NCBI GenBank assembly: GCA_039091855.1
Contig: JAWCLA010000026.1
Span: 1 to 10,857 of the forward strand
Direction: 5' to 3'
DNA length: 10,857 nucleotides
From: Candidatus Aenigmatarchaeota archaeon
Lineage (GTDB): Archaea > Aenigmatarchaeota > Aenigmatarchaeia > QMZP01
In this document: piece after piece, positions 5,262 to 10,857 of the stretch
How positions within the stretch are numbered: position 1 is the first letter of the stretch
Layout of the letters: every line of letters begins with the position of its first letter
Made by a program: the position numbers and the translations under genes
Notes under the pieces: generated by a model
Told to the model about the DNA's origin: nothing
Database searches by the model: none
What the model saw: only the letters and a program-made list of their open reading frames with translations

Positions 5262-6422
5262 CTATTTCAACCCCAGCTCCTTCTTGAGTTGTGGAACCTT
5301 GTCCGTCTTTTCCCATGTGAAGTCCGGATCATTCCTGCCGAAATGCCCGTATGCAGCTGTTTTTTTGTATATTGGCCTGAGAAGTTTAAGGTGCTCTATT
5401 ATTCCCCTTGGTGTTAGAGGGAAAATCTTTCTGACTGCCTCTGAGATTTTTTCGTCAGGAACCTTTCCTGTGCCAAAGGTGTGGATGAGGACAGATACCG
5501 GCTGTGCGATCCCTATTGAGTACGCAAGCTGAACCTCGCACTTTTCAGCGGCTCCGGATGCAACTATGTTCTTTGCTATGTATCTCGCCATATAGGCGGC
5601 AGAGCGGTCAACCTTTGACGGGTCCTTTCCTGAGAAGCAGCCGCCTCCGTGCCTGCCCATCCCCCCATAAGTGTCAACTATTATCTTTCTTCCTGTTACC
5701 CCGGTATCCGCCTCTGGTCCGCCTATCGCAAACACGCCTGTCTCGTTTATGAATATCTTTGTCTTGTCATCCATCCACTTGCCACATACAGGCTTTATCA
5801 CATGCTCTGTTATGTCATGCCTTATCTTGCCGTTTTCAACTTCAGGGTTGTGGTGAACTGCAATAACAACAGCATCAACCCTTTTTGGCTTGCCGTCAAC
5901 ATACTCAACCGTGACCTGTGACTTGCCATCAGGCCTTACCCAGTCAAGTATCTTTTTCTTCCTCACTTCAGCCAGTCGCATTGTAAGCTTGTGCGCGAGC
6001 ATTATTGGAAGCGGCATAAGTTCGGGTGTCTCGTTGCAGGCAAAACCGAACATCATTCCCTGGTCTCCCGCGCCTTGTTCATGGTTTTCTGTCTGGTTTA
6101 CCCCTATAGCTATGTTCTGGCTCTGCTCGTGTATCGATGTTAAAACAGCGCAGTCCATACAATCAATCCCGTATTCCGGGTTTGTGTATCCTATCTCCCT
6201 GAGGGTTTCTCTTGCAATCTTTGGTATGTCAACATAGCAGTCTGTTGTTATCTCTCCTGCTATCATAACAAGACCTGTGGTCGTCAGGCATTCCACTGCC
6301 ACCCTTCCTTTTGGATCCTTTGAAAGTATGGCATCAAGTATGGCATCTGATATCTGGTCGCAAATCTTGTCAGGGTGTCCCTCTGTTACTGATTCCGAAG
6401 TGAACAAAAATCTCTCAGCCAT
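5262..6422 (-). CDS. metK: S-adenosylmethionine synthetase, bacterial/eukaryotic type
   Basis: [46 protein letters not shown] and [16 protein letters not shown] motifs. ATG at 6422 (MAERFLF) is preceded by GGAGAG and preferred over the track's 6470 start. Confidence 0.97.
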
Positions 6423-6617
6423 TTCCAACACTCTCCTTAAAATTTTTAATTTTGCATCAGGAACGAACACTTTATTGCGGCTTGGTTTCTGTTCTGTTTA
6501 GTTAAAGAAAGAAGGTATTTATATAATTTTTTATATATTTTAATAATAAAAAATAACTATCAGTTATTAATATCCCTAAAAAATAAAAGGAAACAAAAAA
6601 AATTGTTGTTAGGGTCT

Positions 6618-7428: not shown

Positions 7429-7592
7429 TAATATCAGCCCTTTTACAAAAAGGGCTGAACCCCCGTCAGCCCTTTCCAAGAAAGGGTTGATATCCCAAAG
7501 ACGTTACTATAACAATGCAATTGTTTCATATAATGTCAGCCCTTTTACAAAAAGGGCTGAACCCCCAAAAAATTTTACTATAACAATGCAAT
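7429..7592. repeat. Cluster of three palindromic hairpin repeats plus a duplicated 18-mer
   Basis: TCAGCCCTTTT-ACA-AAAAGGGCTGA-ACCCCC at 7434-7464 and 7536-7566 (identical). Variant TCAGCCCTTTC-CAA-GAAAGGGTTGA at 7466-7490. TTACTATAACAATGCAAT at 7504-7521 and 7575-7592. Confidence 0.95.
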
Positions 7593-7651
7593 AGGTGAAT
7601 ATAACAAAGTTGGGGCTATGGTGTAGCTTGGTCTAGCATCGGAGCATGGGG

Positions 7652-7736
7652 ACAAGCCTTTCTTTACAAGAGCCCACGGGCTTCTGCAAAGAAACCCTTG
7701 GGAAAGAAACAGGCAAAAAAGAAGGTCTTGACATCC
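7652..7736 (+). other. tRNA-Pro intron at canonical position 37/38 (85 nt)
   Basis: BHB: central helix ATGG/ACAT (one G-A mismatch), bulges GG^A and CC^T, flanking helices CAAG/CTTG and the anticodon stem. Confidence 0.88.
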
Positions 7737-7757
7737 TGCTTCAGACCCCGGTTCAAA

Positions 7758-7859
7758 CCTGAGCCTTCTTTCCCGAAAGAAGGCCAAGGCTCACCCAGAA
7801 ATGGAGTTACAAAATAACTGAGAAAGTGTTATCCGTTTATTTAAGGCCTGAGGTGAAAG
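7758..7859 (+). other. tRNA-Pro intron at non-canonical position 59/60 (102 nt)
   Basis: Central helix TTCA/TGAA, bulges AA^C and AG^T, T-stem as outer helix. Removal restores TTCAAAT. Confidence 0.88.
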
Positions 7860-7974
7860 TCCGGGTAGCCCCATTATTTCATTCTTTAGAGCAAAAGCTA
7901 ATAGTATTTAAATGGATTTTTTGCAGCCTTGCGGCTAACAATCACTAAGTCCTTAGAACGAACTTATAACCCAA

Positions 7975-8672: not shown

Positions 8673-10424
8673 TCATTCATTACTTGTTTTCTTTATTAAA
8701 TTTTTCAAACATTCTATAAAATTTTTATTATCATTAAGTTCATTTTCCTTTTTAAAATCCCAAATGTCTTCTTCTTTGGTTATTTCTTTTAAAAAATCTT
8801 CACTCAATATATCCTTTATGTCATCCCATCTGCCATAGAAATACTCATTTATTAAAGGCAAAATTTTTCTGAACCAAACCCTTCTCAAATCTTCTTCTGT
8901 TTCTACACCCATAAAATAAGAATGTCCTATTTGCTTGTCTCTTTCACCTTTTTCAATTATTCTTTTATTTAATGCTTCCAAAAGCTCCTTCAGATTCACA
9001 CCTTTAATACTTTTGCCTTCCAATATTCTGGCATCAGGCACCATCTCAAAAAACTCAAAGCGCCTTCTTAAAGCAATATCGATTAATGCTATGCTTTTGT
9101 CGGCAGTGTTCATAGTTCCTATTATATACAGGTTTGGAGGGATGGAAAAATTCTCTTGAGAATATGTAAGCTTTAAGATTATTTCATTTTCATTACTTTC
9201 TCTTTTATCTTCTTCAATTAGCGTAATTAGCTCTCCAAATATCTTGGGTATATTCCCACGGTTTATTTCGTCTATAATTAGATAGAATTTTTTATCTCTT
9301 TCTTTCTTTGCCTTGTCTACTATATTTTTTAAGATGCCTGGTTTTATCACATATGTAACTTGCCCACCATCTATTTTTGCTGTGATGCCTTCTACAAAAT
9401 CTTCATAAGAATAACTTGGATGGAAAGTTACAAACTCTATTCTACCTTCATTTTTTATGTTTTCATATTCTTTCTTGACTTTTTCATAATTGCTGAATTT
9501 TTTAAGTTCTTCTGCATCATCACATAGTTTTGTAAAATCCTCACTTCTTTCTATCTTAACTATGACTGCTTTTGTTGCATATGTTTTTCCCGTGCCAGAA
9601 GGACCGTAGATGATTATGTTCAGCGGAAGCTGTGTTTTTGATAGTTTGTTTTCTAAACTAGCAGTTATAGAAGCATTTCGTATATCTATACTATTTTTCC
9701 ATTTTTCGAAAAATTTCTTTCCTTTTTCATTTTTATCAAAATAATTAAACATCATATCTATTTCGTGATAGATTGTTAGATGTTGACCTGAAATTTTACC
9801 AACATAATCAAGATAAAATTCTTTAAACTTTTCAAATTTTTTTGAAAAATTTTCAAAATCATTGTTATCAATTTCTTCATTTAAAATATCTGATAATATG
9901 TTTCTAGAACATGCATTGAATATTGGTATTTTATCTGGGTGTAGAATAGAATATAATTCTAAAATTCTTTTTGTAGCGTAATTTTTCGCATTAACCCCCT
10001 TACCCTTCACTTGTTCAATTAGATTATACACCTTTTCTAATATTTTTGATAAATCTTTTTTTTCTTTCAACCTTTCTATATCAAAAATTATTTGTTTTAG
10101 TTCTTCTATATAACCTTTGTCTAATAATGTTCCAAGTATACTACATGTTCCTCCAAAAAAAACAAGCCAGTCTTTATCTTTATATTTTACATTCCTTCTT
10201 GACAAAAGATATCTCAATTTATCACCAATATCTTTTTCGTCTATGTCTTTTCTCAATTCTTCTACCAAATTTTTTACAATTTCAACTCTTTTACTCCATA
10301 TCGAATCTTCAGTAAAATCATAGTTTCCATCTTCACACACATTTTTTTCCAAAACTAAATTTTTCCAATAATAAAGCAAAGGTTTTACTTTTTCTTTCCA
10401 TTCTTCATCTCGATTTTGAAGCAT
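8673..10424 (-). CDS. mcrB: McrB-family AAA+ GTPase (type IV restriction)
   Basis: Walker A GPSGTGKT, FVTFHPSYSYEDFVEG, Walker B IIDEINRGN, McrB signature MNTADKS, ALRRRF and IGHSYF. About 260-aa N-terminal domain not recognised. Confidence 0.93.
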   Translation of the reverse strand: MLQNRDEEWKEKVKPLLYYWKNLVLEKNVCEDGNYDFTEDSIWSKRVEIVKNLVEELRKDIDEKDIGDKLRYLLSRRNVKYKDKDWLVFFGGTCSILGTLLDKGYIEELKQIIFDIERLKEKKDLSKILEKVYNLIEQVKGKGVNAKNYATKRILELYSILHPDKIPIFNACSRNILSDILNEEIDNNDFENFSKKFEKFKEFYLDYVGKISGQHLTIYHEIDMMFNYFDKNEKGKKFFEKWKNSIDIRNASITASLENKLSKTQLPLNIIIYGPSGTGKTYATKAVIVKIERSEDFTKLCDDAEELKKFSNYEKVKKEYENIKNEGRIEFVTFHPSYSYEDFVEGITAKIDGGQVTYVIKPGILKNIVDKAKKERDKKFYLIIDEINRGNIPKIFGELITLIEEDKRESNENEIILKLTYSQENFSIPPNLYIIGTMNTADKSIALIDIALRRRFEFFEMVPDARILEGKSIKGVNLKELLEALNKRIIEKGERDKQIGHSYFMGVETEEDLRRVWFRKILPLINEYFYGRWDDIKDILSEDFLKEITKEEDIWDFKKENELNDNKNFIECLKNLIKKTSNE

Positions 10425-10857
10425 TTAAACACCCCCATTCAAATTTTTAAAAACTTGCTTTAAATTTTTTACAAGCTCGTCTTTCCAATCCCTTTCCTTT
10501 AGCATAGACAAATCAATTTTTCTGAAATAAATAGAAATTTTATCTTTTTCTATTGTTATAGCATTTTCTTTGCTTTCTTCCTGAATGTGTTGCGGATATA
10601 ATAGAACTCCTTTAACATTTTCATATCCTTCATTTTTGTAAAACCGACAATAAGTATAAATCTGATAAAAATCATTGCTTGGTAAATTACTTTTTTCTTT
10701 AGAAGGCATTTTCTTATATTTTGTGTCTATTACAACAACTTCTTTCTCATTTTCATTATAAACTACTATGTCAGGTATTATTTTCAGATAACCTCCATTT
10801 TGCCACGTCCCCCCTTTTCTCCCTTCTTGTATTTTTATTCTATAATATTTCCCAAAG
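10425..10857 (-). CDS. mcrC: McrC-family PD-(D/E)xK nuclease, 5'-truncated by the window edge
   Basis: The frame stays open upstream of the track's 10709 start to the window end: IIPDIVV..VVVIDTKYKK..DFYQIYTY..GVLLYP, the McrC C-terminal motifs. Its TAA abuts the mcrB ATG. Confidence 0.88.
   Translation of the reverse strand, partial: FGKYYRIKIQEGRKGGTWQNGGYLKIIPDIVVYNENEKEVVVIDTKYKKMPSKEKSNLPSNDFYQIYTYCRFYKNEGYENVKGVLLYPQHIQEESKENAITIEKDKISIYFRKIDLSMLKERDWKDELVKNLKQVFKNLNGGV

Follow-up and report, generated by a model that had tools for sequence, protein, structure and literature searches.

The stretch of DNA analyzed here, called the window in the following, is contig JAWCLA010000026.1 of a Candidatus Aenigmatarchaeota archaeon, 10,857 nucleotides (nt) in length and identical with the entire contig C19 of an assembly (G000) that comprises 689 kilobases (kb) in 38 contigs and is 84% complete. 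Positions 7612-7873 of the window very probably represent a functional tRNA-Pro(GGG) gene of a small hot-spring archaeon of the DPANN group (Diapherotrites, Parvarchaeota, Aenigmarchaeota, Nanoarchaeota, Nanohaloarchaeota), which is interrupted by two introns that are probably lengthened by repeats and would be removed by the tRNA splicing endonuclease EndA and the ligase RtcB. The layout of the gene and of its flanks, including the putative bulge-helix-bulge (BHB) splice motifs, is as follows:

7573-7583, plus strand: TATA-like box TTTTACTATAA, at -39 to -29 from the tRNA 5′ end, putative promoter
7612-7651, plus strand: exon 1, 40 nt; acceptor 5′ strand, D arm and anticodon stem 5′ strand, with the anticodon GGG at 7648-7650 and G37 at 7651 both inside this exon
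7652-7736, plus strand: intron 1, 85 nt, at the canonical position 37/38, relaxed BHB
7737-7757, plus strand: exon 2, 21 nt; position 38, anticodon stem 3′ strand, 4-nt variable loop, T stem 5′ strand and T loop to position 59
7758-7859, plus strand: intron 2, 102 nt, at position 59/60 in the T loop, strict hBHBh′
7860-7873, plus strand: exon 3, 14 nt; position 60, T stem 3′ strand, acceptor 3′ strand and discriminator A73
7874-7888, plus strand: T-rich trailer TTATTTCATTCTTTA, putative terminator by its sequence and by analogy with 24 other tRNA genes rebuilt from the genome (see below)

When the three exons were joined by script, ARAGORN recognized a complete cloverleaf of 75 nt with a 7-base-pair (bp) acceptor stem, a D stem of two Watson-Crick and two G.U pairs, a 5-bp anticodon stem, the anticodon loop A-U-GGG-G-U, a 4-nt variable loop and a 5-bp T stem. 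The spliced product carries U33 and G37, and its A32...U38 loop is the same as in the intron-free orthologue from genome G001. Exon 3 ends at the discriminator base A73, the CCA end not being encoded. All exons are colinear on one strand within 262 nt, which rules out a split or permuted tRNA gene. A reading of the sequence alone (in the following, the sequence-only reading) had proposed exactly this gene, namely a tRNA-Pro(GGG) with introns of 85 and 102 nt, the three exons of which form a complete 75-nt cloverleaf across 262 nt; coordinates and arithmetic proved to be exact. It had also expected that default tRNA finders overlook the gene and, indeed, on the unspliced window ARAGORN reported no gene and Rfam no match at gathering score. 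AT-rich boxes are found at similar upstream distance in many of the other 24 rebuilt tRNA genes, and the box at 7573-7583 may thus act as an archaeal promoter.

The strongest evidence for the gene is the comparison with its orthologues. BLAST searches with positions 7560-7900 against 40 related genomes, followed by inspection of the loci, led to four orthologous Pro(GGG) genes:

G001, same genus: no intron at 37/38, no intron at 59/60; 49.1 bits with RF00005, the Rfam tRNA model
G003, same genus: 33 nt at 37/38, no intron at 59/60; RF00005 41.3 bits
G013, another genus: 29 nt at 37/38, 57 nt at 59/60
G014, another genus: 18 nt at 37/38, 28 nt at 59/60

The introns of these genes (0, 1, 2 and 2 in number) are confined to the same two sites as in the window, and the intron sequences do not align with one another. 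The mature sequences of the four orthologues are identical to the spliced window product at 67, 70, 73 and 74 of the 75 positions; exon 1 of G013 is identical throughout (40/40), and those of G014, G001 and G003 differ at one to three positions. Five stem pairs vary among the five genes (30:46, 32:44, 52:66, 53:65 and 54:64 in the 75-nt numbering), two of them in the anticodon stem and three in the T stem, and all of these changes are double compensatory, with no pair broken. Since in the window the strands of the varying stems lie 85 and 102 nt apart, separated by the two introns, these compensatory changes indicate that pairing is conserved across the introns. A zinc-finger gene on the minus strand downstream of the tRNA gene is recognizably common to the window, G001 and G003, which therefore share the same locus. 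In a spliced-alignment scan (described below), the window gene scored 102 against the intron-free Pro(GGG) of the same genus and 114 against a Pro(UGG) reference, compared to a best score of 64 for the reversed-genome decoy over 50 references.

Additional support for the 5′ junction of intron 1 is provided by DNA contigs of sequencing run X1, in which exon 1 is matched as far as 7651 or 7652 and is followed immediately by exon-2-like sequence. This implies that the sample contains relatives lacking intron 1 exactly at the predicted junction, while being silent on splicing as such. As a separate observation, in one X1 contig position 7640 is linked to 7751 across unknown letters, so that 110 nt are left out; this contig probably stems from a related tRNA gene of another population.

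At both introns, the cut sites of a BHB motif coincide with the exon ends set by homology. For the motif we assumed the standard register of two 3-nt bulges separated by 4 bp and cut after the second bulge base, which is consistent on intron 2. There, 7752-7755 (TTCA) and 7854-7857 (TGAA) form the central helix with four Watson-Crick pairs, flanked by bulges at 7756-7758 and 7858-7860; the T stem with its 5 bp serves as the outer helix, and the inner helix has 2 bp. This motif is the sole candidate within 7600-7885 that combines four central Watson-Crick pairs with a 5-bp outer helix. At intron 1, the central helix of 7646-7649 (ATGG) with 7731-7734 (ACAT) consists of 3 bp and a G.A mismatch, flanked by the bulges 7650-7652 and 7735-7737, an outer helix of 5 bp and a 4-bp inner helix of 7653-7656 (CAAG) with 7727-7730 (CTTG). 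The imperfect ATGG/ACAT helix is kept in intron 1 of G014, and G013 has a perfect 4-bp helix at this place. Unconstrained folding of the 262 nt yields the acceptor, anticodon and T stems, and intron 2 by itself folds at -29.9 kcal/mol (z -3.14), with none of 200 shuffles being as stable.

Searching the genome for the protein families involved in tRNA splicing led to two endonuclease genes and one ligase gene:

129-1355 of the window, plus strand: epsilon-type (three-unit) tRNA splicing endonuclease, 408 amino acids in a single polypeptide
C12 ~5287-5883 (L057:1204-1800), plus strand: alpha-like EndA, 198 amino acids, just downstream of tRNA-Asn and tRNA-Phe genes
C10:538-1842: RtcB ligase, E 3.3e-169

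The first of these genes is located about 6 kb upstream of tRNA-Pro(GGG) on the same contig. Its product contains two Pfam tRNA_int_endo domains plus tRNA_int_endo_N and aligns by phmmer (E 1.5e-97) with residues 16-408 to residues 18-387 of the 395-residue chain in PDB entries 4FZ2 and 9W2K, both of which are the epsilon2 EndA (alphaN-alpha-betaC) of ARMAN-2 (Candidatus Micrarchaeum acidiphilum). The residues aligned to ARMAN-2 Y236, H251, K282, R275 and W384 are all kept, in the motifs RIYF (Y), WIHS (H), SVKK (K), RAVRVAHS (R) and EIEWM (C-terminal W), and the loop between Tyr and His contains Lys residues and is three residues longer than that of ARMAN-2. In ARMAN-2 EndA, Y236, H251 and K282 are the catalytic triad Tyr/His/Lys. 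R275 and W384 of ARMAN-2 EndA are described as the Arg/Trp clamp on the bulged base, and a role of the specific Lys-bearing loop is likewise described in the part of that report consulted (PMC12397907). The product of 129-1355 is accordingly predicted from its sequence to be an epsilon2-type EndA of broad specificity that would cut both introns. The alpha-like EndA has an Ala at the position of the catalytic Lys, as judged by eye from the alignment with the epsilon-type protein and 4FZ2, and a Lys-rich loop between the catalytic Tyr and His.

Among 40 relatives from the order of the window, 38 carry the epsilon-type enzyme, 34 of them in full length or nearly so and 4 in fragments located at the ends of contigs. 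The two relatives in which it was not found are G012 (80% complete), where there was no match to an EndA of any type, and G005, where the alpha-type gene is the only one. G005 is also the one member of the family with a near-complete set of tRNAs detectable by Rfam (45 over cutoff). As G029 possesses an epsilon-type EndA and yet 28 detectable tRNAs, G005 represents a single contrast and not a rule.

Considering gene, motifs and enzymes together, we infer that a precursor of about 270-280 nt would be transcribed from the tRNA-Pro(GGG) gene, that its exon-intron pairs would fold as a strict BHB at 59/60 and a relaxed one at 37/38, that the epsilon-type EndA encoded at 129-1355 would cut in the four bulges, and that RtcB would join the three exons to the 75-nt tRNA, with CCA being added later. 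The long introns, in turn, would have arisen when structured repeats were inserted into, or exchanged among, pre-existing short introns; such repeats would be harmless because they are spliced out. One contig of 11 kb thus offers a testable pair of substrate and enzyme, with a strict 59/60 intron, a relaxed 37/38 intron and the predicted EndA 6 kb upstream.

Several findings weigh against this interpretation. The BHB of intron 1 is relaxed, with a G.A mismatch in its central helix, and in the minimum-free-energy fold the region near 37/38 forms a GGG:UCC pairing that leaves no bulge at the 3′ splice site. Strict BHB candidates within 7600-7885 number 8, compared to a mean of 3.45 and a maximum of 9 in 100 mononucleotide shuffles; a BHB alone was therefore dropped as decisive evidence, and the motifs are counted only because their cut sites match the exon ends defined by homology. 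The assignment of cleavage to the epsilon-type instead of the alpha-like EndA is made by homology only. A search of sequencing runs turned up no RNA data set containing the stretch, and two metatranscriptome runs from the same study as a DNA run that contains it had no reads there and hence constitute no test of expression. Finally, with the assembly being 84% complete, an intact Pro(GGG) copy might be located on unassembled DNA.

Throughout the genome, tRNA genes appear to be organized in the same manner. RF00005 produced six matches at E <= 1, none of them over cutoff, and ARAGORN made four calls when introns in the anticodon loop were allowed. Detectable tRNAs are few in most of the 40 relatives as well (mostly 5-21; 9-14 in four genomes of the same genus). 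For a census, 48 mature tRNAs of G005 and two Pro tRNAs of the same genus served as references for a spliced-alignment scan of our own, followed by refinement of the junctions by BHB score and confirmation of the spliced products by ARAGORN; introns near the reference ends were disallowed and leftover downstream echo matches were filtered out. A cloverleaf was obtained for 25 of 33 candidate loci. All 25 rebuilt genes are interrupted, by 51 introns in total or 2.04 per gene on average (one intron in 3 genes, two in 18 and three in 4). The T loop holds 21 of these introns, which leave a 3′ exon of 14-16 nt (i.e., position 59/60, given the one-base end slack of ARAGORN), whereas 16 are located at 37/38 and 14 elsewhere. 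The shortest intron has 13 nt and the longest 208 nt, the median being 72 nt. The strict BHB definition applies to only 11 of the 51, so that many boundaries are accurate to no better than a few bases. Four introns, with approximate boundaries, are longer than the published maximum of 129 nt:

C18 10392-10599: 208 nt
C7 9188-9376: 189 nt
C1 28234-28394: 161 nt
C36 26944-27087: 144 nt

Doubtful among the 25 accepted genes are C12:44065 and C36:27210, for which the anticodon is undefined, and the gene on C11, which matched a Met reference but was called Glu(UUC) and has poor BHBs; boundaries are unsure in all three. No tRNA was reported by ARAGORN in any splice combination for the remaining 8 loci, i.e., two on C3 (interrupted by a run of N), C1-:12041, C1+:10755, C2+:14822 and three Leu-like loci with scan scores of 54-58, below the decoy maximum of 64. 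Roughly 15-20 further tRNA genes would be expected beyond those rebuilt.

The tRNA-Pro(GGG) gene is hence typical within this genome and unusual with respect to the literature. The claim of the sequence-only reading that introns of such size are out of the ordinary holds when compared with published archaeal tRNA introns, for which a review of 2014 gives, in the part consulted, a range of 11-129 nt with medians mostly of 12-25 nt (PMC4090602), but not within the genome itself, where 21 of the 51 introns measure at least 80 nt. The same reading had asked for a second Pro(GGG) and held that an intact copy elsewhere, combined with the lack of a spliced product, would mark the gene as a pseudogene; no other or uninterrupted copy was found in the 84%-complete assembly, the Pro references matching only the window locus and a paralogue at the end of C3. 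The last ~350 nt of C3 show, on the minus strand, two Pro-like 5′ exons with the acceptor GGGGCCA. Behind the first there is a hairpin, and no further part of a gene can be recognized. The second is preceded by the 52-nt upstream sequence of the window gene at 98% identity and is accompanied by the start of intron 2, but its anticodon and 3′ end could not be located, and its 3′ part is interrupted by a run of N. A split gene or a remnant are both possible explanations for these exons.

The length of the introns can be traced in part to repeated elements. Those of the window gene and its upstream region are:

7656-7714, plus strand: structured repeat (GCCTTTCTTTAC ... AAAGAAAC ... GGC) of ~59 nt, nested in intron 1
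7760-7793, plus strand: hairpin module TGAGCCTTCTTTCCCGAAAGAAGGCCAAGGCTCA at the 5′ end of intron 2, common to T-loop introns of other tRNA genes
7429-7566, plus strand: two tandem units of ~100 nt within the 190 nt upstream of the tRNA gene, each with hairpin CAGCCCTTTTACAAAAAGGGCTG plus AACCCCC

The element in intron 1 folds at -21.3 kcal/mol (z -2.75), and its ends TTTCTTT and AAAGAAA can pair. Its core (7656-7711) has no second copy in its own genome but matches many loci of many among the 40 related genomes by BLAST. The contexts were established from 12 fetched loci and 3 that were re-inspected, with Rfam confirming the rRNA contexts and two of those downstream of tRNAs:

59/60 introns of two tRNAs: G008
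D loop of a tRNA: G021
37/38 introns of Pro(CGG) genes: G021 and G002
inside 16S rRNA genes, at two different places: L067 (G009:C23) and L063 (G003:C42)
17 nt upstream of a 23S rRNA gene, 95% identity: L061 (G021:C11)
directly 3′ of tRNAs, including tandem arrays: G021, G006 and G008
within the coding frame of a putative P-type ATPase: L062 (G024:C44:7016-7670)

The copies in or near rRNA genes are probably rRNA introns or insertions into processing stems, and for the copy in the ATPase frame, an mRNA intron and an in-frame insertion that is tolerated are both conceivable. None of the orthologous Pro(GGG) introns (18-33 nt) contains the element, and the 18-nt intron of G014 has the flanks ACA...GACAT in common with intron 1 of the window. 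From these two observations, intron 1 looks like a short ancestral intron into which the ~59-nt repeat was inserted; without the element it measures ~26 nt, close to the length of the orthologous introns.

At the start of intron 2, ~35-50 nt fold into a hairpin that is found in other genes too. The first 32 nt of the intron (7758-7789), which include most of the hairpin module, are identical (32/32) at the Pro paralogue on C3, and the start of the intron is 83% identical over ~60 nt, including conserved T-loop bases, to C1:28409-28472, which overlaps the T-loop junction of an Arg(UCU) gene. The hairpin has many matches in G001, G003, G004 and G010. Within the genome, 11 pairs of introns are significantly similar, some of them combining a 37/38 intron with a T-loop intron. 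In the upstream tandem units, 7429-7464 and 7531-7566 are 97% identical. GC-hairpin units of this type recur next to several tRNA genes, at C6:4634-4863, C7:5714-5944 (3′ of tRNA-Ser), C2:14518-14662 and the end of C3, and one is also present inside intron 1 of Ile(GAU).

More tentatively, structured cassettes such as 7656-7714 might spread among endonuclease-spliced sites in tRNAs, rRNAs and possibly protein-coding genes across the order and thereby serve as a vehicle of archaeal intron gain and enlargement; we consider this a possible, though somewhat doubtful, extension. If true, the broad-specificity epsilon-type EndA would make each insertion survivable, and the lineage would show intron gain in action, a step still called open for the tRNA introns of Asgard archaea.

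A related scenario is that the introns are composite and removed in two steps, the nested repeat being an endonuclease-spliced mini-intron of its own that is cut first, whereupon the remaining short intron folds into the BHB. The presence of the element in 16S rRNA genes and at three tRNA positions (D loop, 37/38 and 59/60) suggests removal wherever it is placed, and the ~26 nt left in intron 1 are near the 18-33 nt of the orthologues. However, a scan of 7600-7885 revealed no strict or relaxed BHB cut sites that bracket 7656-7714, and for copies located in spacers or immediately 3′ of tRNAs there are no exons that could be joined again, so that removal in two steps appears rather unlikely.

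The long introns could also be retained as functional small RNAs with guide or regulatory roles that are released by splicing, instead of being passive repeats. In favor of this, a genome of another genus (G021) has a copy of the intron 1 core with 95% identity, and this core folds stably, as does intron 2, which surpassed all 200 shuffles. On the other hand, the window contains no Rfam match at gathering score, and no RUGAUGA C box was seen when the two introns were read by eye (intron 2 has three copies of CUGA), for which reason a box C/D small RNA of the tRNA-Trp type was rejected. The orthologous introns lack the element altogether, and its occurrence in 16S rRNA genes, 3′ of tRNAs, in tandem arrays and in a protein-coding frame is more in keeping with a mobile repeat than with a dedicated guide RNA. 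Retention as small RNAs is therefore judged improbable.

It is highly improbable that the gene is dead, i.e., a compact or short-intron Pro(GGG) that was inactivated by repeat insertions and is no longer spliced: the nested repeat of intron 1 is indeed missing from the orthologous introns and the BHB of this intron is imperfect and not part of the lowest-energy fold, but the exons are intact, 73-74 of 75 positions are identical to the orthologues from other genera, stem changes are compensatory only, a replacement copy was not found in the assembly, the imperfect ATGG/ACAT helix is kept in G014 despite an intron of only 18 nt, and long introns cannot mean loss of function in a genome in which all 25 rebuilt tRNA genes share the same architecture. 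A functional gene with repeat-lengthened, endonuclease-spliced introns thus remains the interpretation favored here.

Two further features of the window deserve mention. On the minus strand, 8673-10856 encodes a McrB-like AAA_5 ATPase and a McrC-like gene at 27-32% G+C, compared to 40-50% elsewhere in the window, and is probably an acquired restriction module. Also on the minus strand, 5262-6470 encodes an S-adenosylmethionine synthetase with three Pfam S-AdoMet_synt (MetK) domains in an archaeal genome; this domain type is that of the bacterial and eukaryotic S-adenosylmethionine synthetases.

With respect to genome analysis in general, standard finders report almost no tRNAs here (none by Rfam over cutoff, four by ARAGORN), which means that, for DPANN genomes of this kind, annotation pipelines, estimates of completeness and studies of codon usage will go wrong if multi-intron genes are not rebuilt. 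Furthermore, the four orthologues with their 0, 1, 2 and 2 introns and the repeat nested in intron 1 of the window show introns at fixed sites growing and shrinking between close relatives.

Multi-intron tRNA genes spliced by an endonuclease are already known from Thermoproteales, ARMAN-2 and, recently, Asgard archaea. For Thermoproteales, Sugahara 2008 and Fujishima 2010 reportedly described multiple-intron tRNA genes and the transposition of introns. As in the present genome, their genes contain multiple BHB introns, up to three per gene, at canonical and non-canonical sites, and related intron sequences are common to different tRNA genes, according to the part of the 2014 review consulted (PMC4090602). 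In contrast, Thermoproteales use an (alpha-beta)2 EndA with the crenarchaeal loop, their intron medians are mostly 12-25 nt and at most 87% of their genes are disrupted in the data consulted (PMC3239211), compared to a median of 72 nt and 25 of 25 disrupted genes here. Euryarchaeota likewise have a long, structured BHB intron at 37/38, namely in tRNA-Trp, where it nests a box C/D RNA (PMC4090602, in the part consulted); unlike there, no C/D RNA was detected in the window introns, and long introns are present in many isoacceptors. Asgard archaea resemble the genome studied here in that most tRNA genes are interrupted (2.2 intervening sequences per gene vs. 2.04 here) and in that standard annotators miss the introns, which motif-free comparison with compact relatives detects. 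They differ in lineage and endonuclease type, and the introns examined here belong to visibly shared sequence repeat families.

The closest known system is that of ARMAN-2 (Fujishima et al., 2011), likewise a DPANN archaeon with an epsilon-type EndA and tRNAs heavily disrupted at several positions including 59/60; as far as the consulted part of that paper goes, its EndA was active in vitro on an intron at 37/38 and on a relaxed one at 59/60 (PMC3239211). Its pre-tRNA-Pro(GGG) also has two introns, but these are located at 53/54 and 59/60, both in the T loop, and not at 37/38 and 59/60 as here, and the substrates tested had introns of 13 and 25 nt instead of 85 and 102 nt with nested repeats (PMC3239211). 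In the consulted part of a survey of 2018, the epsilon2 type is confined to Micrarchaeota-related organisms, undetected disrupted tRNA genes in DPANN genomes are predicted, and the phylum of the window is mentioned solely where the DPANN acronym is expanded (PMC5829648); here, 38 of 40 relatives carry the epsilon type. Literature searches yielded no paper dealing with the tRNA introns of Aenigmarchaeota/Aenigmatarchaeota, the supplementary DPANN tRNA tables of PMC3239211 and PMC5829648 being outside the scope of this search. Relative to the literature found, the present observations add the lineage, the size of the introns, a near-universal 59/60 intron in an assembly with no detectable uninterrupted tRNA gene, repeat cassettes inside the introns, and an epsilon-type EndA that is widespread outside Micrarchaeota.

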